In this document: in pieces, positions 1-46,300 of the stretch | Numbering within the stretch: position 1 is the stretch's first letter | Layout: each line of letters starts with the position of its first letter | Made by a program: the position numbers and the translations under genes | The notes under the pieces: generated by a model | The model's database searches: none | Told to the model about the DNA's origin: nothing | What the model saw: only the letters and a program-made list of their open reading frames with translations | DNA from: Methanobacteriota archaeon | GTDB taxonomy: Archaea > Thermoplasmatota > DTKX01 > VGTL01 | Direction of reading: 5' to 3' | DNA length: 64,000 bases | Assembly (NCBI GenBank): GCA_016874675.1 | Contig: VGTL01000007.1 | Coordinates: 41-64,040, forward strand

Positions 1-155
1 ACCGGCGTTTCTTGCGGTTCAGGGTCCGCATACATTCATATCCGCCTCTTAGATTTACCGAGAGGTCCTTATTTCGGGATTCTACATCCCCGGGCGTCCA
101 AAGAAAAACGCATAAGGGGCGAACGCGATGGCAGGGCCGGTATCGGGGTGCAAGG

Positions 156-410
156 ATGGGACTTCTCGACAAGACCAAGGACCTGGGGAAGAAGACGGTC
201 GAACTGGGCAAGAAGGGAGTGGACAAGGGCATCGATCTTGGGAAGAAGGGCGTGGGCGCCACGAAGGAGGCCGTGAGAAAACACAACTGCGTGGAGTGCA
301 AGCACTACGTGCCGGCCGACGAGAACAGCGGCGACTGCCCTCCCGGCGGCCACCGCATGGCCTCGGCCGACGTCGGCACCTGCCCGCAGAAGGCGTTCGT
401 GAAGAAGTAG
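156..410 (+). CDS. Small protein (84 aa) with Lys/Gly-rich ~11-residue repeats and a Cys4 putative metal site
   Basis: ATG at 156 after GGGGTG. Sequence MGLLDKTKDLGKKTVELGKKGVDKGIDLGKKG...CVEC...C...CPQ. Confidence 0.7.
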   Translation: MGLLDKTKDLGKKTVELGKKGVDKGIDLGKKGVGATKEAVRKHNCVECKHYVPADENSGDCPPGGHRMASADVGTCPQKAFVKK

Positions 411-415
411 CGCCG

Positions 416-1297: not shown

Positions 1298-1321
1298 TAC
1301 ATCGAGGGAAAATATCCGGCC

Positions 1322-5441: not shown

Positions 5442-5692
5442 TGCCTTTCCAGATCATTTGGTCCGAGCCGGCCGAGAAGGCGCTGAGGAAGCTCGACCGG
5501 TCCGTTGCGAAACGGATATACGGGACCGTCGGCCGGCTCGCGGGGGACCCGCTTCGCAACGTCATCCGCCTTGTCAACTCCCCGTATTACAGGTTGCGGG
5601 TGGGTGATTACCGGGTGATATTCGACCTCCAGGCCGACCTGATGAGGATCCTCGTCGTCAAGGTGGGCCACCGCAAGGGCATCTACGGTTGA
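5441..5692 (+). CDS. relE: RelE/ParE family toxin
   Basis: AEKALRKLD...YRLRVGDYRVIF...VKVGHRKGIY. Confidence 0.9.
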   Translation: MPFQIIWSEPAEKALRKLDRSVAKRIYGTVGRLAGDPLRNVIRLVNSPYYRLRVGDYRVIFDLQADLMRILVVKVGHRKGIYG

Positions 5693-25522: not shown

Positions 25523-25528
25523 TGTCCA

Positions 25529-26527: not shown

Positions 26528-27405
26528 TTCGACACCCTCGTTTCCACGACGCTGAACCTGACGGTGAGCTGGGAGACGCTGTATATATTGAACGTGAAGC
26601 CGGTGGCGGACCAGGAGACGCTGTAGTTGGAGGAGGTGAGGTTGGCGCTGGCGGAGGCCGAAAGCACCGAATCGGTCAGCCAGCTCGCCCAGCCGTCCCC
26701 GCAGGTGGTCGAGGCGTTGAAGGTGATGTTCCGGTTGGACGGGAACGGTATCACGGTCTCCTCGGTGTGGACCACGCGCGTCTCGATGCCGGCGCTGCCG
26801 GTGCCGGTGATCTGGGCGGAGTCCCCGTACAGGGCGTATATCGAGAAGTGGACGTTCAGCGCCCCGTTCCCGTCGCGGGAAAAGCGCGGCTCCGAGCCCT
26901 CGCGGAAGGTGGAGCAGGTCCCCTGCCTGACGATGACGGCCCCCTGCTCGTAGATGTGCTCCTGGTCGACATAGTAGGAGTTGCGCGACTGGAAGGATAT
27001 CCTCCCGCGGCCGATGCCGAAGACGTCGGACACGTTGTCGGCGTCGTGGAGCTCGAACACGCTGCCGCTGCTGTCCAGGGAGAGCGTCCCCTTGGACGGC
27101 TCGCCCTGTATGCCCAGAAACGAGCTCGTGGTCCCGGAGGTCATCACGATGTGGTAGTAGAGGCTCCCGGCACCCTCGCCCTGGTCGATCTGGTCCTCGA
27201 TGCCGTCCCGCACCGACTGGAACTGGTTGGCCACCTTGTTCATGTGCTCGGCCTCGGCGTCCTTGGACCAGGACGGGACGTAATACAGGGCCACGCCGGC
27301 GAGCACGGTGGTGATGATTATGACGAACAGCACCGCGGTGACCGAGCCGGCTATGCCGCCCCGGTCCCTGGCCCACCGGGCCCTCACCGGACGATCCTGC
27401 CTCAC
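26524..27405 (-). CDS. Small pilin-like protein with class III signal peptide (paralog 1)
   Basis: ARDRGG|IAGSVTAVLF, VPSWSKDAEAEH, NSYYVDQEHIYEQGA. Confidence 0.8.
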   Translation of the reverse strand: MRQDRPVRARWARDRGGIAGSVTAVLFVIIITTVLAGVALYYVPSWSKDAEAEHMNKVANQFQSVRDGIEDQIDQGEGAGSLYYHIVMTSGTTSSFLGIQGEPSKGTLSLDSSGSVFELHDADNVSDVFGIGRGRISFQSRNSYYVDQEHIYEQGAVIVRQGTCSTFREGSEPRFSRDGNGALNVHFSIYALYGDSAQITGTGSAGIETRVVHTEETVIPFPSNRNITFNASTTCGDGWASWLTDSVLSASASANLTSSNYSVSWSATGFTFNIYSVSQLTVRFSVVETRVSK

Positions 27406-27448: not shown

Positions 27449-30400
27449 TTATTCTGTCGGGAACCAACAGTCGCCCGGGCGAAAACGACGCTCGACCGGC
27501 AGGAACCGGGTCGCGGGACCGGCCGGAGCCCCCGACCCTTCCGGTCCGGCCGGCTCCGGCGGGACCCGTGCCCCGTCGTCGGTCCCGGTCACGCCCCGAC
27601 CGCCTTCCGCCGAGGGCCCGTCGTCGCAGGAGCGCCCGGTGCCGGGCATCGAGGGTGCGCTGGCCGCCGACCGTCCCTGCCCGGTCGTGGTGTTACCCGT
27701 CACGGTGACGTCGTCGATGAAGAACCCGCCGAACCCGGCGCCGAGGTCCTGGTGGTGGTTGACGGTGTCGTTGCGCGTGACCACGCGGAAGCGTATCTGT
27801 ATGACCGAGCCGGCCCAGCCCGAGAGGTCGCAGTTTAGGCGCGTGAGGGTGCCGGAGCTCACCCAGTTGCCCCCCAGGTTCACGCCGGTGTAGCTCGTCC
27901 CGTCGGGCCCGGCGGCCTCCGTCCCGGAGACGTTCCAGGCCGAGCGCACGCCCATGTTGAGCTGGCGCCAGCTCAGGCCGTTGTCGCCGGAGACCTCCAC
28001 GCGGAACCCGTCCGGGGGCCTTCCCTCGGGGTAGAGGATGTTGAAGCGGAACAGGGCGTTGAGCCGGACGTCCTTGGCGCGGCTGAGGTCTATGGGTATC
28101 GTGACCAGGCTGTTGTCCAGGCCGCCCTTCAGGGTGTCGATGCCGGCGCGCGGGTTGTGGTTCCACCAGGCGCGGGTGCCGCTTGCGGCGAACCGGCCGT
28201 CGGCGTAGTCGTCGCCGTACATCAGGCCCTCCTGCACGAGCTCCCACTGGTCCGTGGCGGCGGCCGTCACCGCCGCAGCGTCGGAGCGCTGGACGCGTAT
28301 CTCGACGTCGTCTATGGCCCAGCCGAAGCCCGTGCCCCCGCCGCAGAACAGGTACAGGAACCGGACCCTCACGTACTGCTGGCCGATGTACGGGGACAGG
28401 TCCGCCTGCACGAAGTCCCAGGTGAACTTCCCGGCGCCGGATATCCCGTTCCAGCACCAGCGCATGTCCGTGCCGGCGCCGTCCCTGAGGTGGGCGCTGC
28501 CCCACTCGGAGATCTTGAGGTTGTTGGGGTAGGGCTGGGTGGGCGCCAGGTAGCGGTAGGTCCAGGGCCCGCCGGCGCCCGGCGCCGTGCCGACCTGGAG
28601 CACGCCCCCGTTGGAGCCGACCTTGAGGTTGTACTTGTGCCAGAAGGTGAGCTTGGCCGAGGCGACGCCGGTCAGGCCGAAGGTCGGCGTGGTGATGGAC
28701 TTGTCGCGCGGGACCTCGTCGCCGTCGTTCCAGTAGGAGGTGAAGCTCTGGGGCGGCGGCCCCGCCGGCGGCGTCACCGCCGTTATGAGGACGTCGTCCA
28801 CGGACCAGCCGGTGTCTATGTTGTTGTCGTTGTTGGAGACGAACCGGAAGCGGAGCCTCATCTGGTTGGTGAGCGGCACGGTCCCCGAGACGGTCATGTC
28901 CAGGCCCAGCACCGCAGCCCAGGTGTTGTTGTTGGTGTCGGACTGCCACACCGTCACCCACGTGGCGCCGTTGTCGTTGCTGATGTCGGCGTAGCACCAG
29001 TCGTCGGCGAAGACGTCCGTGCGGTGCCAGAACGTGAGCAGGGGCGAGGTGTAGCCACCCGAGAGGTCGAAAATAGGGGAGACGAGGGTGTCGTCGTCGT
29101 TCTTGCGGTACTGGTTGCCGGCGTCGCGGTAGCACCGGTACGAGTAGCTGTCGGTGTGTGCCCAGGTCGTGTCCCGGTGCCAGTAGGAATCGGCCGGGGC
29201 GGCGTTGGTGATGGTCCACCCGGGCGGCGGCTCCAGCTCGAAGCCCTCCTGGATGAGGGTCACGGTGGCCTGCGGCGCGGCGGCGCCCTCCCCGCTGCGG
29301 CCCCAGCCGAGGGTGCCCGTCACGACCACGTCGTCCACCGACCAGCCCTGGGCGTTCGTGTTGCCGTCGGACCACATGCGGAACGCCACCTTCATCTGCG
29401 AGGTCGGGGTTAGGGCGTTGAGCAGGACGCCGGTGACGGACGCCGGGTTGGCGTTGTTGGCCCCCTGGATGTTGTTGGCGAAGCACTGGACGCCCACCCA
29501 GGTGGCGCCGTTGTCGTTGCTCAGGAACACGAAACCGGCGTCGAAGCCCCCGGCGCGGCGCATCGCCGGGCGGTGCCAGAAGCCGAGCTGCAGGTCGCGG
29601 TAGCCGTAGGCGTCGAAGGTCGGCGTGATGAGCCAGTCGTCGTTCCAGTTGGCGTAGGAGCCGACGCCGTCGTAGCATCGCCAGGAGTGGATTCCGGAGC
29701 CCCTGAAGTCGTTGGTCTGGTACCTCCAGAAGGTGCCCGCGGCGGCGTAGTTGCGGGTCGTCCAGCTGCCCGCGCCGGGCTCCATGTTGTCGGAGAAGAG
29801 CACGATCCTGGGGCTTGAGCCCGCCGCGTCGGGCGGGGGGGCCGGCCGGGCCGCCGGCGCGCCGCCGCGGCCCAGAGTCTGGGCGAGCTCCTCTATCTTC
29901 CTGGAGATGTTTTCGAACACCTGGGCGATGTCGCTGGGGCCGGGCGAGTAGTAGTACCACCCGCCGCCGCCGGGGGTGATGTTCGCCTCGGCCGCCAGGT
30001 TCACCATGTTCGTCCTTATGGTGGCGGTGATGCCGGCGCCGTAGCCTATGAGGAACACCGGTATCGGCTGGGTCTTGACGATGGCCATGGCGGCGGCCAG
30101 GCCGGCGGCCACGCTCGGCTGGTCCGAGTTGCTGTCCCCGTCGGTCAGGACGACTATGCAGCGCACTCGGGTGTTGTCCCCGTAGTCCCGGATGTACCTG
30201 TAGCTCACCACCACGGCGTTCCAGAAGGGCGTGCCCCCGTCGATCGTTATGTTCACGATGCCGTCGGCAAGCAGGCTCTTGTCGCCGGTGAGCGGGGTGA
30301 ACAGCCTGGTGTAGTAGGGCGTGAGCGGCGGGTTGGGGGCGCTGTTGAGCGGGTAGTTCGTGGTGAAGGCCGCTATCGCCCCCCGGTCGCTCGTGTGCAT

Positions 30401-33400
30401 CCGGTTGACGAACGTGAACATCGCCGACTTGGCGCCCTCGGCCCTCGCCGGCGTGTCCCACTCCATGGACCCCGTGGCGTCCAGCGTCAGGATGACGTCC
30501 ACCGGCGTGCGCGAGGTGGCGACGGGCTCGTGCATGTAGAACGCCCTGTCCTGGCTGTGGTACTGCTTCGTGATGTTCGCGAGGCTGGCGTTGTCGGTGG
30601 TGTTCCTCCAGCCGTTGTACTCGGCCCAGCTGCCCAGAATGTCGCTTGCGACCGGCCCGGGGTCGAGGTACTCCAGGGTGGATTCGCCGTTGATGCGGGC
30701 GATGGTGGAGCTGTGGGACCACTTCCCGGTCCCGTCCTCCATGTCGTCGTAGAAGAAGTATACCTGGAGGTTCACCCGGGCGTCGTTGTTGAACTCGAAG
30801 ACCTCCCCCAGGAGGTCGTCGGGGTCGACCCGGACCGACATCACCCGGTTGCCGGCGAAGAGGGGCGTCCAGATGACCTCCACGAGGGCGAAGGAGTCGT
30901 GCTCCACGGAGATGGAGACCGAGTCTATCACCGTGCCGCCGTCGCTGAAGCGCACCACGGCGTCGCCGCGGGTCCCGCCGGGGTTCCAGACCCTGGCCTT
31001 GAGCATGTAGGATTCGCCCATCATGGGCTTCATGTCCCGCAGGGGCTGCAATGTCGTGTGGAAGAGGTCCAGGTGGGTGATGCGCAGCTCGGTGCGCTCG
31101 TCGTACATGTTGAACCAGCCCATCACTAGGTAGGCGAGCTCGGCGTTGCAGTCCTCGTTGTCCGTGTAGGAGATGAAGCTCGGGTCCCAGCCGAAGACCA
31201 CCGTGCGGAAGTTGGCGGTGACGTTGTCGTGCCTGATCGCTATGAACGGCCGGGAGAGCTGGACGTCGTCCACGCGGGCCGTGCCGGTCCCTATCGCCAC
31301 CTCGAAGCCGTCCACCTCCCGGATGTTGAGGCCCCCGCCCGCGCCCTCGCGCAGGTCCAGGAGCAGGTCCCGGGTGACGGTGTGCCAGCCGTTGTCGGCG
31401 GTGTAGGCCCCCAGGCCGTGGTGCACCGGCTCGGCCCCCAGGAGGCTTGTGTCCGAGTTCGTGTAGGTGAGCGTGTGCTTCGTGCCGACGGTGTCCGTGA
31501 GGTGCCAGACGAAGGTGTAGGGTATGGCCGAGCGGAAGCTCCACCGGGCGACGGAGCGCTGCTCCTCCTTCCAGGGCAGCGAGTTGGGGTTCTGGTCGGA
31601 CGCCTGGCTGAAGTCGCCCACGATGAAGGAGTTGGGGTTGATGTGCGCGCCGGTCCGGGCGACCTGTATCACGTTCTGGCCGCGCAAGGGGTCGTAAACG
31701 TTGGTTATCGTGGAGGAGGTCAGGGGCTGGACGACGCGGGCGTACCAGCCGGCGGTGGTGCCGTCCTTGCCGTCGGAGTAGACGATCTCGTTTGGGGTTG
31801 TGATGTCAGGCATCGGCTTCTGGTAGAGCATGCCCAGGCCGTCGTTGTAGGGGACGAGCTTGTGGGCGGCGTCGGCGTAGGTGGGCGTCGCCGGGTACCT
31901 GGTCCCGTGGGCGATGGGGTCCAGGTTGGCGCCCTCCAGGTGATCGGGCGTCCTCTGCCCGACGGGGTTGTCCACCCGCGCCAGCCGCAGGTAGTCCCGG
32001 ACGAACGGGTCGGCGCCGCCCGTGTAGTCGCCGTTGGGGACGGCCCGGGGCCCGACCAGCCACAGGTACCGGCCGTCCCCCTTGTCGAGGAAGGTCTTGA
32101 GGCTGGCCTTGTCCGTGGCGGTGAGCGCGTTGCCGGCCTGGCCGGTCACCCATATTATGGCGTTGTAGAGCTCCATCTTGGCGATTCCGGGGCCGTCGCC
32201 CGCGCCGGTGGTGTTGACCTGGTCGTAGGTGTAGCCCAGAAGGTCGAACGCCCGGGTCAGGTTGGCGGTCGAATCGTAAAAGAGCCCGCCGTTGTTGGGG
32301 CTGCCGTCGTCGTCAACGACCAGCGTTCCGTAGCGGACGAACACGGTCCGGGCGAGCGAGGCCGCCACCTCGTTGTTGTTCTCGTTGAGCTCCTGGATGT
32401 AGTCGTAGGGGTCGACCTTGCCCAGCACGGTGTGCTCGCCGATCCGGTCCGCGATCCAGCCCATGGTCACCTTGATGAAGCCGCCCCGCCCGGGCACCTT
32501 CAGGCTGGCGTTGCCGGTGTCCTGCGGGATCCATATCTCCGAGGTGGGCGGGTCGAGGGTGGTGTTGCCCCCGCCTGCCTCTATCGTCACGTGCACCGGG
32601 TCGAACACGATCCCGTCCACGTAGAACCCGACCTGGAGCTGGGGCCGGCTCTGGTCCACCGGCTCGTCCCCGACGCCGTTGTTTCGCAGGTACATCGTGA
32701 TGTTGACCATCTCCATGAACGCCGGCGTGGTCTTGCTGAACCGCTGGTCCGAGACCCCGAGGTCCCGGCCCCAGGCGGCGCCCACTCCGAACCACTCGAG
32801 CATCTCGTAGGTCATAATCGAGCGCTCGTTGGGCGACCTTATGCGGGAGGGCTCGAACCCGAAGAGGCAGGTCTTGTAGGTGTCGTCGGTCGGGGTGCCG
32901 TTGGTGGTGGCGTTGAACAGGATGGCGAAGGCGTTGCCGCCCCCCGACTCGTTGAACACTGCCGCGCCGGTGGGCAGGAGCCTCATGGTGTCGGAGCGGT
33001 CCGGAAGGCCGGTGGGGAAGGGCAGGTCCATGACCATGTTGAAGCCCGCCATCGGGTTCCGGCCCTCCACATCGTTCGTGAGCCCCACGTTGAGATGGCC
33101 CAGGGGGGTGGCCGGGCTCACCTTCATGTATGTGTTGAGGAAGGCGTTGGTCCGGCCCAGGCCGCTCAGGACGTCCTGCCCGATGAGCCAGAGCTTGCCC
33201 TTGTCGTCGAGGTAGCGGCCCAGCTGGACCTGGTCGTTCGCCGTGACCGTGGTCCCGGGCTCGTAGCCTGTGAGCCAGATGACGAGATCGTAGTCCACGA
33301 GGGGCCTCTCGCCGGCGTCGAAGAGGGGACCGTCCCCCCCGCCCGGGACCGTGTGGACCGAAAACGACGCCGCCACCGAGCCCAGGGCCTCCTTCATCGA

Positions 33401-34630
33401 GGTGGTGACGTCGCGCAGCCCCCCGTCGCCCGCCCGGTCGTCGTCCACGAGCAGGATGGTCGGCAGCACCTCCACCTGGAGGAGCGCCTGGTCCGTGGAG
33501 CCGCTGGGGTCGGTGACGTTGACGATGACGTTGTGGGTGCCCCCGCGGGGGGTCCGCCACACGATGGTGGAGACGGACTCGCCGCCCACCGGAACGCCCA
33601 GCCCGGTGTCCTCGCCGATGAGGTTGGCCGGGTCGACGCTGCCCAGGTAGTAGCGGACGGTGGCGTTGGCGGGCACGCCCCCCTGGTTGGAGATGCGCGC
33701 CGTCAGGTTGACGTAGGCCCCGTGCACCGGGAACCGGGGCAATGACTCTATGGAGCGTATCCGCAGCACCGGGTTCCCCGGGTGGGAGGCGATGACCGTG
33801 TAGCCAACGCGGTAGTCTGTCGAGGCGTAGTTGTTGGCGAACCGGGTCTCGTTGGGCAGGGGAACGATCCTGACGCTCAGGGTGTGCATCCCCCAGCTGC
33901 CGGCCGGTATGCGGTACTGCACGCTGAGGTTGGTCGAGGAGGTGCCGTCGAGGTCCAGAGTGGCGGTGAGCACCGGGTAGGACCGCCGGTCCAGCACGGA
34001 GTAGTCCGAGACCCTGACCGTGAAGTTTTGGGCGGCCGCCGGGCCGAAGTTGTGCACCGTGACATTGACGGTCACGGTGTCGTCGGCCATCGGGCCGTTG
34101 GTGTCGTTGAAGGTCGCGTTCCGGAAGAGGATGATTATGTCGTTGCGCGAAAGCCCCAGGTCGGGCACCATGCTGGCGTCCGGGCCGCGCTGGAGGACCT
34201 GGTCCAGGAGGACCATGTCGTTTTTCGTGTCGATGACCTGTATCCTCACCCTCTGGCTGGGGTTGGTGATGTACCGCAGCGTCCAGTTCTCGCCCACCTG
34301 CCAGCCCTGCCCGGCCTTGCCGTCGGTGATCGAGGCCTGCCGGTCGTACGTATCGTTCACGTAGAGCTGGAACCGGGTGGAGAGGTTGTCGAGCGCCTCG
34401 CCGCCCATGTGGAGGACGGTGATGTCCTCCCCGTCGTAGGAGGCCACCAGGTCCGCCCGCACGCTGTCCCGCGGGTCCTGCACCGTGCTCAGCTGGAGCG
34501 CCAGCGCCGAGACCATTATGACGGACATGGCGACGAGCAGGATGTCGCCGATAATCTCGGCCGCGCCCGACCGGTCGCCGGAGAACCTCCGCCCCGATTT
34601 TGCCCTTCCGATGCCGCGCCTTGCGTTCAT
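27449..34630 (-). CDS. Giant type IV pilin-adhesin A (2393 aa): archaeal pilin N-domain, CARDB, alpha/beta domains, vWA, MAM-like jelly-rolls
   Basis: DRSG|AAEIIGDILLV, HMGGE, MIDAS DATGS...T...LTDG, repeated FWH...GW.VDDV. Confidence 0.85.
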   Translation of the reverse strand: MNARRGIGRAKSGRRFSGDRSGAAEIIGDILLVAMSVIMVSALALQLSTVQDPRDSVRADLVASYDGEDITVLHMGGEALDNLSTRFQLYVNDTYDRQASITDGKAGQGWQVGENWTLRYITNPSQRVRIQVIDTKNDMVLLDQVLQRGPDASMVPDLGLSRNDIIILFRNATFNDTNGPMADDTVTVNVTVHNFGPAAAQNFTVRVSDYSVLDRRSYPVLTATLDLDGTSSTNLSVQYRIPAGSWGMHTLSVRIVPLPNETRFANNYASTDYRVGYTVIASHPGNPVLRIRSIESLPRFPVHGAYVNLTARISNQGGVPANATVRYYLGSVDPANLIGEDTGLGVPVGGESVSTIVWRTPRGGTHNVIVNVTDPSGSTDQALLQVEVLPTILLVDDDRAGDGGLRDVTTSMKEALGSVAASFSVHTVPGGGDGPLFDAGERPLVDYDLVIWLTGYEPGTTVTANDQVQLGRYLDDKGKLWLIGQDVLSGLGRTNAFLNTYMKVSPATPLGHLNVGLTNDVEGRNPMAGFNMVMDLPFPTGLPDRSDTMRLLPTGAAVFNESGGGNAFAILFNATTNGTPTDDTYKTCLFGFEPSRIRSPNERSIMTYEMLEWFGVGAAWGRDLGVSDQRFSKTTPAFMEMVNITMYLRNNGVGDEPVDQSRPQLQVGFYVDGIVFDPVHVTIEAGGGNTTLDPPTSEIWIPQDTGNASLKVPGRGGFIKVTMGWIADRIGEHTVLGKVDPYDYIQELNENNNEVAASLARTVFVRYGTLVVDDDGSPNNGGLFYDSTANLTRAFDLLGYTYDQVNTTGAGDGPGIAKMELYNAIIWVTGQAGNALTATDKASLKTFLDKGDGRYLWLVGPRAVPNGDYTGGADPFVRDYLRLARVDNPVGQRTPDHLEGANLDPIAHGTRYPATPTYADAAHKLVPYNDGLGMLYQKPMPDITTPNEIVYSDGKDGTTAGWYARVVQPLTSSTITNVYDPLRGQNVIQVARTGAHINPNSFIVGDFSQASDQNPNSLPWKEEQRSVARWSFRSAIPYTFVWHLTDTVGTKHTLTYTNSDTSLLGAEPVHHGLGAYTADNGWHTVTRDLLLDLREGAGGGLNIREVDGFEVAIGTGTARVDDVQLSRPFIAIRHDNVTANFRTVVFGWDPSFISYTDNEDCNAELAYLVMGWFNMYDERTELRITHLDLFHTTLQPLRDMKPMMGESYMLKARVWNPGGTRGDAVVRFSDGGTVIDSVSISVEHDSFALVEVIWTPLFAGNRVMSVRVDPDDLLGEVFEFNNDARVNLQVYFFYDDMEDGTGKWSHSSTIARINGESTLEYLDPGPVASDILGSWAEYNGWRNTTDNASLANITKQYHSQDRAFYMHEPVATSRTPVDVILTLDATGSMEWDTPARAEGAKSAMFTFVNRMHTSDRGAIAAFTTNYPLNSAPNPPLTPYYTRLFTPLTGDKSLLADGIVNITIDGGTPFWNAVVVSYRYIRDYGDNTRVRCIVVLTDGDSNSDQPSVAAGLAAAMAIVKTQPIPVFLIGYGAGITATIRTNMVNLAAEANITPGGGGWYYYSPGPSDIAQVFENISRKIEELAQTLGRGGAPAARPAPPPDAAGSSPRIVLFSDNMEPGAGSWTTRNYAAAGTFWRYQTNDFRGSGIHSWRCYDGVGSYANWNDDWLITPTFDAYGYRDLQLGFWHRPAMRRAGGFDAGFVFLSNDNGATWVGVQCFANNIQGANNANPASVTGVLLNALTPTSQMKVAFRMWSDGNTNAQGWSVDDVVVTGTLGWGRSGEGAAAPQATVTLIQEGFELEPPPGWTITNAAPADSYWHRDTTWAHTDSYSYRCYRDAGNQYRKNDDDTLVSPIFDLSGGYTSPLLTFWHRTDVFADDWCYADISNDNGATWVTVWQSDTNNNTWAAVLGLDMTVSGTVPLTNQMRLRFRFVSNNDNNIDTGWSVDDVLITAVTPPAGPPPQSFTSYWNDGDEVPRDKSITTPTFGLTGVASAKLTFWHKYNLKVGSNGGVLQVGTAPGAGGPWTYRYLAPTQPYPNNLKISEWGSAHLRDGAGTDMRWCWNGISGAGKFTWDFVQADLSPYIGQQYVRVRFLYLFCGGGTGFGWAIDDVEIRVQRSDAAAVTAAATDQWELVQEGLMYGDDYADGRFAASGTRAWWNHNPRAGIDTLKGGLDNSLVTIPIDLSRAKDVRLNALFRFNILYPEGRPPDGFRVEVSGDNGLSWRQLNMGVRSAWNVSGTEAAGPDGTSYTGVNLGGNWVSSGTLTRLNCDLSGWAGSVIQIRFRVVTRNDTVNHHQDLGAGFGGFFIDDVTVTGNTTTGQGRSAASAPSMPGTGRSCDDGPSAEGGRGVTGTDDGARVPPEPAGPEGSGAPAGPATRFLPVERRFRPGDCWFPTE

Positions 34631-37600: not shown

Positions 37601-40383
37601 GTCAGCCGGGAGCCGCCGGTGACCGGGCCGAATGTCCGGCTCGTGGTGTAGTTGATGCCGTGCCCCACCGGGTCGTCCCGCACCCCGAGGAGCGGGTCGG
37701 GCATCCCCACGCCCCGGTTCACGGCCGAAACGTGCAGGAAATCGTAGAGGAACGAGCCGGCGCCGTAGATGCCGGTGGGGAACATGTCCTGGCCGATGAG
37801 CCAGAGGCCCCGGTCGTCCCCGGCGGACAGGAAGCCCTTGAGGTTGGTCTCGTCCTGGCTGGTCAGGGGGTTGGGTGCCCCGGGGGCGCACTGGCCTGTG
37901 AGCCAGATGACCGTGTTGAACCTGCGCAGGTAGGATTCGGACGGGCCGTTGATGCCGGGGCCCGGCACGACGTACGTCGTGGCCGTGTAGCCCAGCCGCT
38001 CCAGGGCCCTCTGGAACTCGAACGTGCTGTTGTAGAAGGTCGCCATCGCCCGGTTGTTGGGGCTGTCGTCGTCGTCCACAACGAGTATGCTGTACCGGAC
38101 GACCAGCGAGGACGTGGCGGAGCCCCACACCTCGTTGTTGTCCTCGTTGGTCTCCGCAATGAAGTTGAACGGGTCCACGCTGACGCGCACGGCGTGGCTG
38201 CCGACGCGGTTGGCCAGCCACACTATCGTCACCCGGACCACGCCTCCGTCGCCCGGGACCCCCGGCACCTCGACGGGGTTGGTGGTCATGGAGCCGTTCA
38301 TCAGGGTGTCGTTGATGTACACCTGGTAGGGCGGGATGGGGGAGTTGTCCATGAGGAACAGCACCAGCACGCGGTCGCCGCCCTCCGGCTCGTACCCCTG
38401 GCCGTTGTTGCGCACCCAGACGGTGATGTTGACCTCTTCCATGAAGTCGGGGTTGAGCTTGCCGATTACCTGCTCCGACAGCGCCAGGTCCCGGCCGTAG
38501 CGGGCCAGGCAGTCGAACCACTTGAGCATGTGGAAGGTCAGGTTGGCGCGGTCGTTGGCGCTCCTGAGCTGGGAGAACTCGAACGAGAAGAGCGCCATCG
38601 TGTAGGTGGGCCCGGAGGAGTTGGTGGTGGCGTTGAACATCAGGGCGTACTTGGAGCTCGTGGAGGAGTTCCAGAGCGCCGCCACGGAGCGGCTGTCGTT
38701 GACCAGCTTGTCCGCGAGGTCCGTAAGGCCTCCAGCCCACGGAATCGAATTGACGGGAAGCGTCATGTTGCACGTGACGAAGTTCTCAGGCACGCCCTCC
38801 AGCGGGTTGTACAGTCCGGCGTCCAGCACCTGCCCGGAGACGTGCAGGTAGCCGCTCAGCCAGGCGGGCGCCGTGCTCCGCAGGTCGTTGACGAGGTCCT
38901 GGCCGATGAGCCAGAGCTTGCCGCCGTGGTCCATGTACTGTGAAAGCGACGCCATGTCGTTGGGGGTGAGGGTGGAGGTCCTCTCGTGGCCGGTGACCCA
39001 GATGACCAAATCGAAGTCGGCGAGCCGCCGCTTGGCCGGCCCCGTGTCGTACTTGGGGCCGTCGCCCCCGCTCACCTCGTAGTAGGTGTACTCCGCAGAC
39101 ACGGCGCTGAGGGCGGCCTCCACCGCCGAGGTGGCGTCCTTGAGCGTCCCGGGCCCGGCCTTGTCGTCGTCGACCAGGAGCACGGTCGGCAGGACCTCGA
39201 TGTAGACCGTCCGGTTGTTGTTGTCGGGGTTGGCGTCGTCGGGGGGGCCGTTGATCACCGAGACGTTGGCGAACATCCGGTGGATGCCGCCGAAGCTGGG
39301 CAGCCAGACCGTGTCGACCTCGAGGAGCTGGCCGGCGGACACCGAGAGGTTGTAGTCGGTGAAGAGCTCCACGCCGTTGTCCCAGTAGGTGACGCTCGCC
39401 ATCGCCGGCACGCCGCCCTGGTTGGCTATCCGCACGAACATCTTGACGGCGTCGCCGTGGATGGGGTGGTTGTTCGAAAACGATATCGAGGTGATGTTGA
39501 GGTCGGGTGCATCGGGCGTGGTTATGCCGGGACCGATGCGTATCTGCCTGCTCGCGTAGTTGTTCGTGAAGACGCTCTCGTTGCGCAGGGGGACCGCCCT
39601 GACGTAGACCGAGTGCGGCCCCCAGGCCGTGATGGGCCACGGCACGCTGACGACGGCCGTGTCCCCGGGGTTGCCGGAGGAGTTCAGGAAGGGCACCAGG
39701 CGGGGCTCGAGGGCCAGCGCCGTGTACATGAACACGGACGAGGCGACGGTTATGTTGTTCACAGGCACCCGGCCGAAATTGTGGACCACCACCTGTACGG
39801 CGAGGATGTCGCCCTCCACGGGGGCGTTGTCGCCGTCGTCGACGAGCGAGCCGGCGCGCCAAAACGATATGTCGTCGGCCGAAAGGCCCACGTCCGGCAG
39901 CAGGGAGTAGTCCTGGGGCCGCCGGATGAACTGGTCGGAGAGCACCCGGGAGTCGCGGGTGTTCACCACCACGACGTGCACCCGGTCGTCGGGGGAGACC
40001 ACGGCGCTCACGTTCCTCGTCCAGACCTCCCCGACGCCCAGCGCGCCGTCGGGGTGCCCCTGCGAGATGGAGAAACGGGCCGGCAGGCTGTAGTCCTTTC
40101 CGATCTGTATCGTCACCTGGTCCTGCCGGAGCACGGCGCCGCCGACGTGCTCGATGGTGACGTTCGTGCCGTCGAACGAGGCGACCGTGTCCGCCTCGAG
40201 CGTGCCGGCCGGCGGGGGCAGGCTCATGAGCTGCGTCGCCAGGGCCGAGAGCATGATGACGGAGGTCACGACGAGCAGGATGTCCCCCAGCGTCTCCGAC
40301 ACGCCCCGCCGGTCGTCTTGGAACCTCCGGCCGCCCCGCCCCCGCACCCCGCGCCCTGCACCCTGCGCCCTGCACACTGTCAT
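34627..40383 (-). CDS. Giant type IV pilin-adhesin B (1918 aa) with a vWA cassette
   Basis: DRRG|VSETLGDILLV, HVGG, MIDAS DTSNS...TP...LCDG. ATGA overlaps at both ends. Confidence 0.85.
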   Translation of the reverse strand: MTVCRAQGAGRGVRGRGGRRFQDDRRGVSETLGDILLVVTSVIMLSALATQLMSLPPPAGTLEADTVASFDGTNVTIEHVGGAVLRQDQVTIQIGKDYSLPARFSISQGHPDGALGVGEVWTRNVSAVVSPDDRVHVVVVNTRDSRVLSDQFIRRPQDYSLLPDVGLSADDISFWRAGSLVDDGDNAPVEGDILAVQVVVHNFGRVPVNNITVASSVFMYTALALEPRLVPFLNSSGNPGDTAVVSVPWPITAWGPHSVYVRAVPLRNESVFTNNYASRQIRIGPGITTPDAPDLNITSISFSNNHPIHGDAVKMFVRIANQGGVPAMASVTYWDNGVELFTDYNLSVSAGQLLEVDTVWLPSFGGIHRMFANVSVINGPPDDANPDNNNRTVYIEVLPTVLLVDDDKAGPGTLKDATSAVEAALSAVSAEYTYYEVSGGDGPKYDTGPAKRRLADFDLVIWVTGHERTSTLTPNDMASLSQYMDHGGKLWLIGQDLVNDLRSTAPAWLSGYLHVSGQVLDAGLYNPLEGVPENFVTCNMTLPVNSIPWAGGLTDLADKLVNDSRSVAALWNSSTSSKYALMFNATTNSSGPTYTMALFSFEFSQLRSANDRANLTFHMLKWFDCLARYGRDLALSEQVIGKLNPDFMEEVNITVWVRNNGQGYEPEGGDRVLVLFLMDNSPIPPYQVYINDTLMNGSMTTNPVEVPGVPGDGGVVRVTIVWLANRVGSHAVRVSVDPFNFIAETNEDNNEVWGSATSSLVVRYSILVVDDDDSPNNRAMATFYNSTFEFQRALERLGYTATTYVVPGPGINGPSESYLRRFNTVIWLTGQCAPGAPNPLTSQDETNLKGFLSAGDDRGLWLIGQDMFPTGIYGAGSFLYDFLHVSAVNRGVGMPDPLLGVRDDPVGHGINYTTSRTFGPVTGGSRLTPRADARGVTYLNPAGSSYNAVRFDSSSMGYRTLLCGYDLSFIAGRGTVPETEYESELVYMALHWLGLPETRVELRVTEMDMYYGNLTPIQGMHPAMGNSYVVKAVVANPGGARGDCSVRFLDGSTVIGTSFVSVAPDGETIAEIIWTPLFAGDRKISVQLDPDSVVSEIMRFNDLASVNLRSYFFYDDMEDGARNFRHEATVVRINGESALEYIDIGNVSTGVASSWQALSGFAQTTRDYHSMNSSFHMKEPGPPVDLALVFDTSNSMTGQPLADEKAAALTLVNNLTNDSRVAIFCMASNPGQRFVRPFTLLDAAGRAGVTTTINGLSVQAWTPIWLAFGEAIQYVIDFRSPDRVPAVVALCDGQDYQGSDGTIGLPPSWPADYNQLELGSDDNPWGYAPWWNWGVTQVAGSHTGKYFGKAAIPGYWFTQSFSVADGTRKGLLNAPIPLFTIGIDLEHDPNLPAFSSTSVAANVVDRAQNAFTVYTGAGSQESGTPEYNLYRIATTSPKGSYFYAPSSLDLFGVFQAVGEQLSSLVLARGAAAPGPEAPGPGAPAPGSRTGGSAEGAAGARSPNIPGPNDRYALTQSIDLRGVSSARLSFWHKYSITMGLSGCVVLVGTSADNTTFTYKYVTPGQSYKGNLKTTITRLDDLGSEIRWAWNGISGKGDFDWEFAEVNLNSFCGQQYVRVMFAYLRAGGGGGLGWWIDDVEVRVSRSNSVAVTDTSRDQWELVRKGTLLGGGADTADAWSGDWAWLCHSPSPSVDYLRPGLDNSLLTVPIDLRSALDARLIAKFKFNINYTDGRPPDGFRVEVSSDGGVSWRPINFGVRSAWKVSGTEAAGPDGTSFTGVDLGGNWVHSTSLTRLNCDLTGWAGSVIQLRFRVVTRTDSVNHYHSVTGWGGFYIDDVTVFGNTTTGGRSAGGPGAAPDGAPAAAGDAVGTGDPAPSPQAAPPAGTGPASPQAARPAPAVPVMTILSRNELIVSDSQRGHRQ
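40335..40375. repeat. Heptamer repeat arm within the leader of giant pilin B
   Basis: CCCCGCACCCCGCGCCCTGCACCCTGCGCCCTGCAC encodes CRAQGAGRGVRG. Confidence 0.65.
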
Positions 40384-43300
40384 CGCCGGTCACCTCCGGG
40401 CGCATGGAAACGGGCGGCCCGGGTGGCCGCCGGCAGGCAGGATCGCGGCGGCCCGCCGGCGTCCCCGGCCGGCGCCTGCAGGGGGCCGGCGGCCTCGCCA
40501 GTGGCCGCCGTGCCTCCATCGCCCGGGGTCTCCCCGGGGCCGGCCCCACCCTGCATCTTGCCGGCTCCATCACTGCTGTGATGGGAATCAGGCACCGGCC
40601 CGCCGCCCGGCTGTGACCGGACCGCCCTGCCCCCGCCGGTGGTGGTGTTGCCCACCACCTGCACGTCGTCGATGTAGATGCCGCCGAAGCCGGCGCCGGC
40701 GCTCTCGTAGTGGGTGGCGATGTCGGTCCGGGTCACCACCCTGAAGCGGAGCAGGATGACCGAGCCCGCCCAGCCCGAAAGATCGCAGTTGAGGCGGGAG
40801 AGGGTGTTGCCCGCCACCCAGTTGTCCAGGATGTTGACGCCTGTCATGCTGGTGCCGTCCGGGCCGGCCGCCTGGGACCCCGAGAGCCCCGACGAGGAGC
40901 GCACGCCGCGGTTGAGGGCCGTCCAGGTCTCGCCGTTGTCGGAAGAGACCTCCACCCGGAAGCCGTCGGGGGGCCGCCCGTCCGAGGCGTTGATGTTGAA
41001 CTTCAGGTTGCAGTGCAGGGCGGCGTCCAGGGCGTTGGTGAGGTCGATGGGGACGGTGGTGAGGCTGTTGTCTATGCCGCCCTTGAGGTGGTCCACGCCC
41101 GCGCTGGGGTTGTGGCACAGCCAGGCCCGCACCCCGCTGAAGGAATCCGCGACATCGGTCCCTCCCAGGGGCGTTCCCCGGGTGACCAGCTCCCACTGGT
41201 CGTCCACCGATGTGGTGGGCCCGGCCGCGTCGCCCCGCCCGGCCTTGACGACCACGTCGTCGATGTACCAGTAGCCGACGCCGGTCATGGTGGCGTTCAG
41301 GTAGAGGAACTTCACCTTCACGTGCACCTGCCCGATGAACGGGGAGAGGTCCACCGTGATGTAGTCCCAGCCTCCCAGCCCGTTGGTGCTCACGCCGTTG
41401 TAGCACCAGCGCATCTCCCGGCCGAAGTCGTCCCTTATCCTGCTTGCGGGGATGTCGAAGCGGATGTTGCCCGTGTAGGGCCTCGTGGGCGTGACATAGC
41501 GGTACTTGTAGTTGTTGTCGCCGGCGGTGTCGTTCCCCACCATTATGACCACGCCGTTGGCGCCCACCTGCATGGAGTACCTCTGGTAGAAGCTGAGCCC
41601 GGCCGAGGAGTACCCGACCAGCGAGAACGGCTGGGTGACGATGTAGAAGTCCTCGTTGGCGCGCCCGCCGGCCCCGCCCTCGCCGCCGCTCCCCGCCGCC
41701 CGCTCCCCGCTCCCGGACGACCTCCGGTCGTCTTCGCCTAGACGAGCTTCGCTCGTCTGCGGTTCGCTCGCCTGCGGTCCCGCTCCCTCCACCGATCGCA
41801 TGATGCCCGGCGTCTCCACCGCCCCCTCGAAGGGCAGGATGGTGTGTATCCAGCAGTTGCCGCTGCCGCCGACCAGGTACAGGAATCGGTGGTTGGCCGT
41901 GAAGTTCCACCAGTGGTTGTCGTCGAAGTCCGAGGTGGATTCGTCGAAGCCGGTCCCCGGCGGGTTGCCTATCGTGGGCCAGAGCTGCCAGACGAACTCC
42001 CCGCCGCTGTCCGTGGCGAAACGGACGATCTGCAGGCCGGCACCCCCGCCGAAGACGGTCCTCCACTGGAAGGTGTGCGCCCCGGCGGGCAATGTGAAGT
42101 TGGCAAAGCCGCTCCCGTCGAGGTCGTAGGGGACCCAGATCGTGGCGTCCAGCATCGACTGGTTCACGGAGAGGGGCCCGGTCCCCATGACGGTCACGTA
42201 GACCGGGACGGTCGACAGGTACCTCAGGCCGTTCTGGTTCACGCCGTTCAAGCTGCCCAGCACCGGCAGCCCGGGGTCGATGTCGATGGTGATGGCCGTG
42301 CCGAACGAGAAGTCCTGGTAGAGGTTGTAGAGGCGGTTGGCGGCCTGGGCGGTGTTGGTCCCGTAGAGCTGGGGCGTGGACATGCGGTAGAAGCCGGGCT
42401 GCTCGGTGACCAACCGGTAGTCCCACACGCCGTCGGCGTAGAAGTGGTCCTGGTACCTGGGGCAGTTGTTGGCGAAGGCCTTGCCCGCGTGCTGCTCCTG
42501 GCCGAACACCACCGTGATGTTGCGGTCCGAGGTTATCCTGAAGTAGTGGAGGCTGTTGTCGTTGGGGGGCCCCATCCGGCTGAAGACCCTGGAGCTGTGG
42601 GGGTCCACCCGCTGGTTGAGCAGCGACCAGCCGCCCCAGCCCGAGGCCTCTGTCGACTCGTATATGTCGATGTCCAGGGCCTGGGCGTCCTCTATGTTGG
42701 AGACGAGGAAGCGCCAGGGCCACCCGCCGTTGCTCCTGTACATCACGAAGTACAGCTCCTTGCCGTAGGTGTAGCCGGTGGTGGACATGGCGTTGTCGGC
42801 CTCGTCGTTGTCGTTGGAGATGCGGTAGAGCAGTATGGGCTTGGTGGCGGTGACGTTGGCCACGGCGTAGGAGTGCGGGGCGCCGAGGTAGGTGTGCCAG
42901 CGCTCGCCGGCCATGAGGTTTCCCGACACGTCGGTCTCGAGAGTGGCGCCGTAGGTGCCGGGCAATGCCGATATCGCCACCCAGGTGACGGTCACCTGCG
43001 TGTTGTCCTCCAGGGCTATCGCGGCGACGTGGGTGTCCCCCCCCAGCCGGCCGGCCAGGTCGCCCATCACGGTGAAGTTGCGCCCGCAGGCCAATCCGTC
43101 GTCATGGTTGGCCACGTTGACGTTGGAGCCCTCCGAGGAGGTGACCACCACGAGCAGCGGCCCGGTGCTGTGTATCCTGTAGAGCGCACCGGCGGTCTGT
43201 TGGTGGTATATGGCCACGCGGCCCTTGGCGAGTATGCCCGTGTAGAGGAGGTCGTACTCGAGGGTCCCGGTGTTGAACCTCTCGACCGTGTAGCTGGCCT

Positions 43301-46300
43301 CCTTCTTGATGGCGACGATGTAGTATCCCTGGGCGAAGGAGACGTTCCAGGGGTCGTAGGTCAAAAAGAAGGTGTAGGTGTAGTCCTCCACCGCCGGCGC
43401 CAGCATGCGGTAGCTTCTGGGGTAGGTGCGGTAGTCCGAGGTGGTGGCGCACACCCCCAGGGAGGCGGACCAGTCCCGCACTATGTTGGTGTTGACCGTG
43501 CCCGGGTCCATGTACTCCAGGGGGGTCTCGCCGTTTATGCGCAGCAGGGTGGCGTCGTGGTTCCAGTTGACGGTCCCGGACTCCAGGTCGTCGAAGAAGA
43601 AGTAGCACTGGATGTTGATGCTGGCGCGGTTGTTGAACTTCATGACCTCCGCGACCGAGTTGTCCGGGTCCACGACCGCCCCGACCGTGCGGCTCCCGGC
43701 GAACAGGGGCGTCCACACTATCTCGGCCAGCGCCCGGGAGCCCGCGTCCACGGAGACGGTGACGGAGTCGATGACGGTGGTGCTGTCCATGAATCGAACG
43801 ACCGCGTCGCCGCGAGTTCCCCCCGGGTTCCACACGACGGCCTTGAGCACGTACGACTCGCCTATCATGGGCTTCATCTGGCGCAGGGGCACCATGTTGC
43901 CGAAGTAGAGGTCCTGGAAGGTGATGCGCAGCTCGGTGCGCTCGTCGTAGAGGTTGAACCAGCTCATTATCATGTAGACGAGCTCCATGCTGTAGCTCTG
44001 GTCGGTCGAGTAGGAGACGAAGCTTGGGTCCCAGGCAGTGAAGACGGTCTTGAAGTTGAACTCGGAGTTGGAGTAGCGGACGCTGTTGTACGGGCGGTTG
44101 AGCGACAGGCCGTCCAGAAGGCCGGTCCCGACGTTCATCCAGACCTCGAAGCCGTCGACGGAGGCGATGTTGAGCGCCCCGTTGCCGGTGCCCTCCCGCA
44201 GGTCCAGGAGCAGGTCCCGGGTGGCGGTGTGCCACAGGCCGTCGGCCGTCCAGGCGCCGAGCCCGAACTCGGGGTCCGCCCCGGAGAGGTTGGTGTCGGT
44301 GTTGGAGTAGTAGAGGATGTGGTGGCCGCTGAGGGTGTCGGTGACGTGGAACCCGACCGTGTAGTCGATGGCGAAGCAGAAGGACCACTGGGCCACCCAC
44401 CTGTCACGGTCCAGCCAGGGCAGGTCCTGGGGGTTCCAGTCCAGGGAGGGCGCGTGGTCGCCCAGAAGGAAGCTCGAGTCCTGGACGTTGACGCCGGAGC
44501 GCTCCAGCCGGATGACCCGGGAGCCGCGGGCGGGGTCGTCCACGTTCGATATCGTGTTGGTGGTGCCGACGGGGTTGATGCGGTTGTACCAGCCGGCGGT
44601 GGAGCGGTCCTCGGCGTCGCAGTAGGTCTCCCGGTTCATGCTGTTCAGGTCGGGCATCGGCGACTGGTACAGTATGCCCTCCCCGTCGATGTAGGGCACC
44701 AGCCTCCCGCCGCTGTCGGCAAACGTCGGCGTGGCGGGCATCCTCATCCCGTGCGAAACCGGGTCCTGGTCGACGCCCATGAGAAACGAGGGCGTCTTGG
44801 GGGCGGCGGGGTCCGTCACCCTGGCGACCCTCAGGAAGTCCCGGAAGAACGCCTGCGCGCCGTCGAAGTAGTTGCCGACGGGAACGGCGTCCTGCCCGAC
44901 GAACCACAGGTAGCGGCCGTCGCTCTTTTTGAGGTAGCTCTCCAGGTTGGCCTGGTCGGCCGCCGTCAGGGAGGAGGCGGACTGCCCGGAGCACCATATG
45001 ATGGCGTTGTACTGCTCGAGCCTGGCAGGCGCGGGGCCGTCCGCCGCCGGGTCCGGGACCACGAACAGGTCGTAGTCGTACCCGAGGGCGTCCAAGGCCT
45101 GGCTGATGTTTTGGGTGGCGTTGTAGTTCGTGGCCCCGAGGCGGTTGTTGGGGCTGTCGTCGTCGTCGACGAGCAGCGTGCCGTACCGCACGAAGAGCTT
45201 GCCGTCGCAGATGGACGGGTCCACCTGGTTGTTGAGCTCGTTGTTCTCGTCGATGTAGTCGTAGGGGTCGACCCTCACGGTGACGTTGTGCTCGCCCACC
45301 TTGCTGGCCACCCACGCCGCCGAGACCTTGATGTATCCGCCCCGGCCGTTGATGACCATCCCGGGATCGGGGGTGCTCTGGGGTATCCAGATCTCGGAGG
45401 TGGGATAGGTGAATGTGTACGTAACGGGCCCTCTCTCGACGGACACGCTGTCGGGGTCGAAGGTCTTGCCGTCCATGTAGAACCCTATCTGCAGTATGGG
45501 GGACACGAAGCCCGGGGGCTCGTCGTTCAGCCCGTTGTTGCGGACCCAGACCGTTATATTGACCTTCTCCATGAACGAGGGATTGGTGACGTTGAAGCGC
45601 ATGTTCGAGATCGCCAGGTCCCGCCCCCACCGGGCCGAGCAGTTGAACCACTCGAGCATGGAGTAGATGATGAGAGACCGGTCGTTGGGGCTCGAGACCT
45701 TGCCCAGCTCGAAGCTGAAGAGCGAGGCCATGTAGGTCTCGGAGCTGCCGTTGGTGGTGGCGTTGAAGAGCAGCCCGACCGGGCGCTGGGCGCCGTCCCT
45801 CTCTATCAGGGCGTAGGCCGAGCGGGAGGTGTTCTGAACGAAGTCGCCGCGGTTGCTCAGGCCTCCCGTGAACGGGGTCCCGAACGTGAAGTTGGTGCCG
45901 GTCAATATCCGGTCGCCCTGCAGCGGGGTGGGGGTCCCGGCGTTCAGCGGGTAGGGCGTGGCCGGGTCCAGCTGCATCCGGGAGCCTAGGAAGGCGTTGC
46001 CGTACCCGAGGTCGCTCACGACGTCCTGGCCGATGAGCCACAGCCTGCCCCGGGACTCGTGCAGGTAGCGGGTGAGCTCGGACTGGTCGTTTCCGGTCAG
46101 GGTGTTGGCCTCCTCGAACCCGGTCATCCAGATGACGAGGTCGTACTCGACGAGCGGGTGCTCCCCGCCCTCGTACCTGGGGCCGTCGCCGCCGCCGACG
46201 GCGTGCACGCCGTAGGTCGCGCCCACGGCCTGGAGCCCGGCCAGCATGGGCGTCACGACGTCCCGGGGCGAGCCCTCGCTGGCTCGGTCGTCGTCGACCA

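Follow-up and report, generated by a model that had tools for sequence, protein, structure and literature searches.

A split jelly-roll domain with varied payloads in three predicted giant surface proteins of a Thermoplasmatota archaeon

The 64,000-nt window analysed here (positions 41 to 64,040 of contig VGTL01000007.1 of the Thermoplasmatota assembly GCA_016874675.1; all coordinates below refer to this whole stretch) encodes three consecutive giant proteins, C, B and A, which align as paralogues with a mutual identity of 42-45% (Table 1). The stop codon of each gene overlaps the ATG of the next by 4 nt at both the C/B (40380-40383) and the B/A (34627-34630) junctions, which suggests a single transcript with translational coupling of C, B and A. 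The G+C content of the window is ~64-73%, and this DNA is also present in lake-water metagenomes. The gene order C-B-A recurs in the loci L065 and L066 and in G001, a genome of a sister family in which we denote the first gene c. The G001 orthologues show identities of 65% in the N-scaffold and 78% in the C-scaffold for B (G001_b), and of 64% and 68% for A (G001_a). The closest named relatives, which come from metagenome-assembled genomes (MAGs) of Thermoplasmata/Thermoplasmatota, bear no annotation beyond 'CARDB domain-containing protein', 'type IV pilin' or 'VWA domain-containing protein'.

Table 1. Coordinates of the trio, of the parts of its split domains and of adjacent genes (nt, positions in the window; aa, residues of the encoded protein; ORF, open reading frame; HMM, hidden Markov model)
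Feature	Position (nt)	Residues or length (aa)	Strand	Basis
Gene C, first gene of the trio	40380..47468	2362 aa	-	ORF
C N-flank, N-terminal third of split jelly roll, FFFDDLESG to YRTYPRSYRMLAP	43395..43616	1285-1358	-	flank HMM, 111 bits
C payload, all-beta module of ~530 aa and G/E/A-rich linker of ~50 aa	41652..43394	1359-1939	-	flank HMMs
C C-flank, C-terminal two thirds of split jelly roll	41214..41651	1940-2085	-	flank HMM, 201 bits
Gene B, second gene of the trio	34627..40383	1918 aa	-	ORF
B N-flank (split jelly roll)	36844..37065	1107-1180	-	flank HMM, 116 bits
B payload, vWA with DTSNS MIDAS motif and inserted beta arms	35860..36843	1181-1508	-	flank HMMs
B C-flank (split jelly roll)	35422..35859	1509-1654	-	flank HMM, 211 bits
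Gene A, third gene of the trio	27449..34630	2393 aa	-	ORF
A N-flank (split jelly roll)	30524..30772	1287-1369	-	flank HMM, 111 bits
A payload, vWA and two MAM-like domains in tandem	28706..30523	1370-1975	-	flank HMMs
A payload, vWA (DATGS)	~29840-30511		-	local HMMs
A payload, MAM-like 1	~29297-29806		-	local HMMs
A payload, MAM-like 2	~28775-29260		-	local HMMs
A C-flank (split jelly roll)	28265..28705	1976-2122	-	flank HMM, 220 bits
HTH (Crp/MarR-like) / AAA_16-NACHT / TPR protein, divergent from gene C	47734..50256		+	Pfam
Two small DUF7289 genes downstream of A	24662..27376 (24662-25522; about 25532-26350)		-	Pfam; pilin-like hydrophobic N-termini

The three proteins share one layout, namely a pilin-like N-terminus, CARDB domains and then two C-terminal MAM-like jelly rolls. 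Pilin_N (PF07790) exceeds its cut-off of 25.2 bits in A (28.0), B (29.9) and C (40.6), and CARDB and, near the C-terminus, InhA-like_MAM are likewise above their Pfam cut-offs in all three (87.6 and 27.9 bits, respectively, in the product of gene C). The N-termini (...DRSGAAEIIGDILLVAMSVIMVSALAL, ...DRRGVSETLGDILLVVTSVIML, ...GRTGVSEIVGDVLLVSIAVVMMGAL; in longer reads ...RSGAAEIIGDILLV..., ...RRGVSETLGDILLV..., ...RTGVSEIVGDVLLV...) show a hydrophobic helix preceded by a short, charged leader whose last residue is G or A, with the motifs RRGVSE, RTGVSE and RSGAAE preceding the hydrophobic stretch. Such a leader followed by a hydrophobic helix is the typical appearance of class III signal peptides, and these N-termini are accordingly predicted to be archaeal type IV pilin-like signals. 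Neither an LPXTG motif (searched as LP.TG anywhere) nor a C-terminal anchor was found in the sequences of A, B and C.

The region that sets the three proteins apart lies in their penultimate jelly roll. An earlier sequence-only reading of this DNA had the alignment of A, B and C lost after YHSQDRAFYMHEP / YHSMNSSFHMKEP / YRTYPRSYRMLAP and regained at SITTPTFGL / ALTQSIDL / IVTQPFSL. We recovered the same points: the ends of our flank HMMs, which cover 74 positions before and 146 after the intervening payload, agree with the payload coordinates of that reading to within about 15 nt. It had further claimed that the payload splits a single domain, and this is borne out by natural relatives, by profile alignment and by a structural model. 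In six natural forms the two flanks are almost contiguous, with only 2 (P0120), 5 (P0107), 5 (P0118), 7 (P0048), 10 (G040_1) and 17 (L052) residues between them, and in all six the gap is bordered by matches to the two flank HMMs. When these uninterrupted domains were compared using hhalign with 22 complete MAM-like domains from A-type payloads, they matched with a probability of 97.8% (E 1.2e-12) over query positions 7-228 and template positions 1-160 of 164 (these being range ends only), and the insertion point fell in the loop before the strand 'L.TP.FD'. In the model of C, the N-flank strands (27-78) lie in the same compact jelly roll as residues 660-800, and single-domain jelly rolls superpose over residues ~25..800 with only 134-158 residues aligned, the former range marking merely the first and last aligned residue. 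As modelled, the host domain is one compact beta-sandwich that superposes on solved MAM domains.

The competing arrangement would be linear, with the flanks as two small domains in their own right, one before and one after the payload, like beads on a string. Its foothold lies in the Pfam models, which reach no further than the C-terminal part of the split domain: InhA-like_MAM matches residues 2069-2131 of A, that is, profile positions 121-183, and a Pfam scan of two uninterrupted natural domains yielded weak matches to the C-terminal part only. Given this limited reach of the Pfam models, domain continuity was assessed by profile-profile comparison. A further point that counts against nesting is the moderate confidence of the B and C models (pLDDT, the predicted local distance difference test, of 71.4 and 73.5). 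The C-flank strands of B (410-543) are modelled at pLDDT 79-94, and the vWA dominates the structural matches to this model. Nevertheless, flanks that lie 2-17 residues apart in nature, that align end to end with complete domains and that are both spanned by compact single-domain superpositions in the C model make the linear arrangement highly improbable. We therefore consider it very likely that the payload sits at one loop of the penultimate jelly roll. One element of the previously proposed architecture has to be given up, namely an outer jelly roll between FFYDD(M/L)E.G and DQWELV enclosing the split one. FFYDDME proves to be the first strand of the split domain itself and DQWELV opens the last MAM-like domain; hence, the architecture has two levels only, with the payload within a jelly roll.

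The contents of the payloads of A and B are as had been read from the sequence: a vWA with two complete MAM-like domains in the former and a vWA with insertions in the latter. In payload A, local HMMs match the vWA at residues 5-133 and 187-228 and the MAM-like domains at residues 240-409 and 422-583; the latter two follow the vWA in tandem, neither being nested within the other. The first 273 residues of this payload match VWA_2 with 31.0 bits (cut-off 27), and it also shows a match to Reelin_subrepeat-B (35.1 bits). Whole-protein Pfam scores of B fall just under the cut-offs (VWA 23.6 vs 23.8; VWA_2 23.4 vs 27), while VWA reaches 43.8 bits in the orthologue group of B (G018_2); payloads A and B both qualify as vWA folds. 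The DATGS of A is a DxTxS variant of the metal ion-dependent adhesion site (MIDAS), as found in all eight payloads that combine a vWA with two MAM-like domains.

Payload C is of a different kind. It shows no similarity to the other payloads of the first comparison set, and residues 85-605 of its model consist of strands throughout, in blocks mostly at pLDDT 72-95; it is thus non-vWA and beta-rich, as the earlier reading had it. The likeness to IgGFc-binding N-terminal domains that had also been suggested turned out to be faint: PF17517 scores 14.7 bits (cut-off 25.6; E 0.019), and three of four members show a match, with a best E of 0.0052. An Atlas feature search returned, at low recognition, a cluster in which 11% of the members carry PF17517, which we treat as a lead only. 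A PDB profile search with payload C gave no match at E up to 1, and Foldseek with the 811-aa C model against PDB and BFVD gave only multi-domain matches with a TM-score of at most 0.13, from which no fold was assigned. Alignments of the module display two invariant acidic motifs, EGS..N..AN and DNDE.D.A. At window positions 41670-41674, just within the C payload at its 3' end and inside its low-complexity linker, contigs of the metagenome runs X1, X7 and X8 carry insertions of 1-2 nt, which may be strain variation or assembly noise.

The C module is rare, with 18 matches (E up to 0.001) in a set of 1.84 billion representatives and a presence in two of 401 genomes of the phylum. Fourteen of the matches lie outside our first family list; two of these have both flanks, one has the N-flank only and 11 have neither. 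The 11 flankless proteins are other surface proteins with CARDB, PKD, Big_1, SdrD_B, SpaA or CBM96 domains. Beyond Thermoplasmatota, we found C-module loci in Chloroflexota-type bacteria (loci L068 and L070, from bacterial MAGs) and in an Aenigmatarchaeota MAG (locus L069), at 24-30% identity and in proteins without the jelly-roll flanks.

To catalogue the payloads, as the sequence-only reading had proposed, we collected homologues through the conserved scaffold and flanks. The C-terminal scaffold of B, used as the query of a word-index search, matched 134 proteins at E up to 1e-10, 120 of them among the matches listed; the rows examined for flanks likewise number 134, made up of 122 proteins and 12 from genomes. 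Both flanks are present in 132 of these 134 rows, with the payload always between the same HMM positions and ranging in length from 2 to 1120 residues. Among 401 sampled genomes of the phylum the B region occurs in 36, including 23 of the 24 in one family-level group, and usually in tandem sets. The 134 payloads that were typed include P0123 and P0124, both of which carry the two flanks, and some rows are duplicates. Most consist of a vWA alone (51) or of a vWA with other domains (42); the rest are the C module alone (17), a vWA with two (8) or one (6) MAM-like domains, no payload (5), other (4) and a vWA with the C module (1). Pfam identifies Big_5, Laminin_G_3 with PA14, Ig_Rha78A_N and MAM-like/Reelin-B domains in representative payloads. 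In all, 108 of the 134 contain a vWA, of which 91 have the DxSxS form of the MIDAS and 12 more the Dx[ST]x[ST] variant. Very different modules are hence accommodated at a single insertion point.

Two relatives elaborate on this theme. In the payload of P0117 (aa 1184-1961), the vWA HMM matches residues 10-244 and again 693-750, with ~450 aa of other domains in between; going by these matches, the vWA is itself interrupted, a true third level of nesting. In the payload of P0076, the end of the N-flank is found once more (...YRSSSTSYVMHEP...) alongside an additional vWA, which suggests an internal duplication across the insertion point.

We then considered how the payloads came to differ. The sequence-only reading saw in the conserved flanks a means of exchanging cassettes, and several observations weigh against exchange as the general mechanism. 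On a FastTree phylogeny of 128 scaffolds, from which payload columns were left out, the payload type changes 25 times, against a minimum of 7 and a shuffled mean of 65.5. Moreover, the orthologues of A and B in G001 have kept the same payloads, at 51% identity over the full length for A and 65% for B. With payload types distributed in this tree-like manner and congruent A and B orthologues, most of the diversity needs no exchange. No recent gene conversion was seen, the DNA identity between paralogues being at most 78% over 300 nt. Systems of the pilS-type antigenic variation and polymorphic-toxin kinds keep silent or orphan donor copies, whereas a search of the own genome for silent copies of the C module returned only the gene itself and short low-complexity matches to the linker. 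Likewise, no contig from four lake/wetland metagenome runs joins a flank to another payload, all listed joints having sides of 20-28 letters that are short spurious matches at 85% likeness; as contigs lose rare variants, this lack of alternative junctions decides nothing. Ongoing cassette switching is unlikely.

It is the C module that departs from this pattern. The first gene of the trio carries a vWA+MAM payload in G001 and on one further contig, and the C module in the window, L065 and L066; despite this difference, gene order and the putative upstream regulator are conserved. In IQ-TREE analyses of 50 rows, a single clade for the scaffolds of the 13 proteins that bear the C module is rejected (log-likelihood difference 468.5; p 4e-45 in the approximately unbiased (AU) test). 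The tree of the module itself joins the W_C clade with P0113/P0084 (support 99) and P0038/P0045 with P0057/P0078 (support 100), and the scaffold data reject both groupings (p 5.5e-4 and 4e-9, respectively). Thus, the alternative to exchange foreseen at the outset, in which payloads are homologous and congruent with the scaffold, holds in part: 108 of the 134 share a vWA and payload type tracks the tree, whereas the C module is incongruent with it. In P0038 (C module) and P0045 (vWA with C module), all four scaffold segments are nearest to the local vWA-only clade, which fits a gain or loss of domains inside the insert.

Gene C itself presents as a mosaic. Its 226 residues before the N-flank are 68% identical to the positional orthologue (P0017) and 44% to P0124; in the C-flank the relation is reversed, with 46% to P0017 and 64% to P0124; and in the last domain it reverts to 75% and 50%, respectively. 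In a 30-aa sliding window, the crossover falls at the linker ...DDVVVKAGRG...DQWELV; on the N-terminal side, it is the orthologue that is nearest up to RINGETPLEY, beyond which all comparisons drop to about 30%. Trees concur: in that of the C-flank, gene C joins P0123/P0124 (support 97) and its grouping with A and c is rejected (p-AU 0.014), and in that of the outer scaffold, it joins c (support 94) and its grouping with P0123/P0124 is rejected (p 4e-6). Taken together, the segment identities and the two trees indicate that the replaced block comprises the payload and the C-terminal two thirds of the host domain. The swap had been envisaged at the edges of the cassette; in the only replacement that we could map, the 3' breakpoint lies ~146 aa past that edge, at the end of the host domain. 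The weight of this result is lessened by the C-flank test resting on 149 columns, by the N-flank being too short, at 74 aa, to yield an informative tree (p 0.53), and by the AU groups having been picked after the BLAST results and trees were seen, on quick LG+G4 protein trees.

A trivial source of such a mosaic, or of the payload itself, would be a chimera produced in the assembly of this metagenome-derived genome, which is in 189 contigs. The C-B-A order with the C module is found on other contigs, L065 (85% identical) and L066 (76%), and in eight further C-clade proteins, and contigs of run X7, which may be from the same lake, span the two junctions of the gene C payload with 0-1 differences. 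The chimera, which we give next to no credence, is ruled out by L065, L066 and the X7 junction coverage.

A more serious contender accepts the nesting and dispenses with exchange, such that ancient duplication, vertical descent and domain gain or loss account for the payloads and the mosaic stems from unequal rates or from convergent constraints on jelly-roll halves obliged to pack against one and the same payload. The clustering of payload types on the scaffold tree, the payloads that A and B share with their G001 orthologues, the placement of the P0045 and P0038 scaffolds and the lack of recent conversion tracts or silent copies all agree with it, and a C-flank co-adapted to the C module could show a raised likeness to P0123/P0124. 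What it accommodates poorly is the reversal of identities between the C-flank and the segments on either side of it, the sharpness of the switch at a domain linker, the rejection of both reciprocal constraints by the AU tests and the second conflict between module and scaffold, that of P0038/P0045 with P0057/P0078. We consider it unlikely, at perhaps one chance in four. An ancient recombinational replacement in gene C is, in our estimate, fairly probable. As to the diversity of payloads at large, we incline to a mostly vertical history with domain gain and loss and occasional ancient exchange. The earlier idea of payload exchange thereby survives in reduced form: the polyphyly of the C module on scaffolds, the conflict of module and scaffold trees and the mosaic of gene C speak for it, while inheritance was mostly vertical and the cassette edges are not both breakpoints.

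The predicted structure of B, searched with Foldseek as had been proposed, has vWA-containing pilus tip adhesins as its neighbours: the top matches are SpaC (6m3y), RrgA (2ww8), PitA (7w6b) and Mfa5 (6to1), with E from 1.4e-09 to 7.9e-07, and the modular pilin PilB and integrin beta subunits (4g1e, 2vc2) are also listed. Like the trio, the four tip adhesins carry a MIDAS vWA with inserted arms on beta-sandwich stalk domains, and splicing of the vWA into a stalk domain is a feature of RrgA and SpaC. They differ in that the proteins of the trio are archaeal, lack LPXTG, have a predicted pilin-like N-terminal anchor and use as host a MAM/CBM-like jelly roll in place of a domain of the CnaB/Ig type; further, their insertion point also takes non-vWA modules or nothing. 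In integrin beta, the beta-I (vWA) domain is inserted in the hybrid domain, its N- and C-termini re-entering the host beta sandwich. Integrins thus have a nested vWA in common with the trio, while they are eukaryotic and heterodimeric and without family-wide variation of the payload, and no sequence relation is shown. Known MAM/CBM jelly rolls (meprin 7uab, RPTPmu 2v5y, neuropilin 5l73, InhA2 4yu5) are continuous, whereas in this family the loop before ..T.PF.L carries 0-1120 aa.

Modular pilins of bacteria carry vWA, lectin and PA14 modules. One of them, the small, bimodular PilB (7b7p) of Streptococcus sanguinis, has its module fused end-on via a short loop; the main text of the paper that describes such pilins has no mention of 'archaea' (PMC8179133). 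In contrast, the trio has an archaeal Pilin_N, a scaffold of ~1100-1300 aa and a module nested in another domain. Large adhesin-like proteins with class III signals receive general mention in censuses of archaeal type IV filaments (PMC4858521, PMC13705601). The trio resembles these in being large, secreted, equipped with a pilin signal and presumed to act in adhesion; the passages concerned do not describe a vWA nested in a jelly roll, payload variation or this Thermoplasmatota family (PMC4858521, PMC13705601). Our literature search found no description of the family or its insertion point, although supplementary lists outside that search may include such proteins. The nested-domain adhesin and the modular pilin are therefore known themes, and what stands out here is the family-wide reuse of one loop together with a mapped block replacement.

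We incline towards a role of the trio in adhesion or ligand binding, probably metal-dependent and directed at a glycan or a protein, and the payload may be displayed distally, as the sequence-only reading proposed. The trio might instead be structural, S-layer-like envelope proteins or proteins that capture polysaccharide or particulate substrates, with the pilin-like signal serving for export and anchoring. The wealth of PKD, CARDB, Big_9 and NosD surface proteins in the window, the LamG and PA14 modules of relatives and the lack of filament genes among the window ORFs scanned are in keeping with this, and a census passage notes that such large proteins may resemble S-layer proteins (PMC13705601). 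On the other hand, a MIDAS vWA is typical of adhesion to protein ligands, the nearest structures are pilus tip adhesins, and tandem paralogues with different tips suit recognition better than envelope structure; we rate a non-adhesive role as rather improbable, noting that it overlaps with 'adhesin' in the broad sense. The link to filaments meets two difficulties: a scan of 18 window ORFs found no filament machinery (ATPase, platform gene), and the one candidate in the genome (94% complete) for the prepilin peptidase, Peptidase_A24, scores 21.6 bits against a cut-off of 26.5. The genome does encode four T2SSE-family ATPases over the cut-off, all on other contigs.

In the explanation that we favour, C, B and A would be co-transcribed, paralogous giant surface proteins, each anchored by its class III signal and hydrophobic helix, either to the membrane or to a type IV filament. 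A scaffold of ~1100-1300 aa would lead to the two MAM-like jelly rolls, and the docking point would be the loop of the penultimate one between the strand ending ...YHS..SF.M.EP and the strand ..T.PF.L, such that the host domain, though discontinuous in sequence, folds as one beta sandwich. The default module would be a MIDAS vWA, behind which further modules (MAM-like, Big_5, LamG with PA14, C module) were gained or lost, and tandem paralogues would endow one cell with several specificities. A vWA+MAM payload and the C-terminal two thirds of the host jelly roll would have been replaced, in the ancestor of gene C, by the corresponding block of a C-module relative. As a whole, from the nested docking loop through the adhesins to vertical descent with occasional recombination, we hold this to be the better supported account, with due reserve.

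More tentatively, it is conceivable that the loop is a universal docking port in this Thermoplasmatota family, at which modules are installed, stacked, nested and removed, and that blocks of payload and half-domain recombine between paralogues at conserved domain borders. Under this bolder and somewhat doubtful proposal, the port has at least eight architectures, of 0 to 1120 aa, among them a rare all-beta module of ~530 aa that has no recognisable fold and is also found in bacteria, and each genome would keep a tandem set of stalks that are alike but for their tips; if true, archaea would possess an evolvable display platform of natural origin. Little is understood of adhesion in archaea, and the large 'adhesin-like' proteins with pilin signals are noted only in passing in the census passages (PMC4858521, PMC13705601). 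The present family offers a concrete and testable architecture, with a fixed stalk, one permissive loop and interchangeable tips, of which natural empty, single, stacked and doubly nested versions are available for comparison. With it, the placing of a vWA inside a beta sandwich, as in integrins and the pilus tips of bacteria, is extended to archaea, probably by independent origin. The mapped mosaic points to domain-level recombination, rather than clean cassette swapping, as a means of diversifying such proteins. The insertion-tolerant loop could guide the engineering of protein display, and a structure of the rare C module, an extracellular fold, would be worth obtaining.

The scaffolds show further features. 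Each protein has two repeats of ~230 aa (A aa ~390-620 and ~765-1000; likewise in B and C) with the motifs VVDDD...DLVIW.TG...LWLIGQD and no match in Pfam. A beta-sandwich domain of ~190 aa is found in A and C (aa ~940-1130; alignment columns 987-1176) and is entirely missing from B; that of A matches Glce_b_sandwich with 28.8 bits.

The divergently transcribed gene next to C combines HTH, AAA_16-NACHT and TPR domains and has homologues upstream of gene c in G001 (L018) and of gene C in L065; it is a putative regulator of the trio. The two small genes downstream of A match DUF7289 with E 7.1e-08 (32.7 bits) and E 9.8e-06 (25.7 bits). The listed 615-aa ORF of the second is over-extended upstream, with the true start probably near RRDRRAASGIVVTLL. 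Further large predicted surface proteins are encoded at 5686-9498 (-), 14025-17162 (+), 53351-55969 (+) and 56217-58787 (+), with domains including four PKD copies with a NosD beta-helix, PKD/CARDB and Big_9/He_PIG/cadherin-like. This abundance of PKD, CARDB, Big_9 and NosD proteins suggests that the window as a whole is a surface-protein island.

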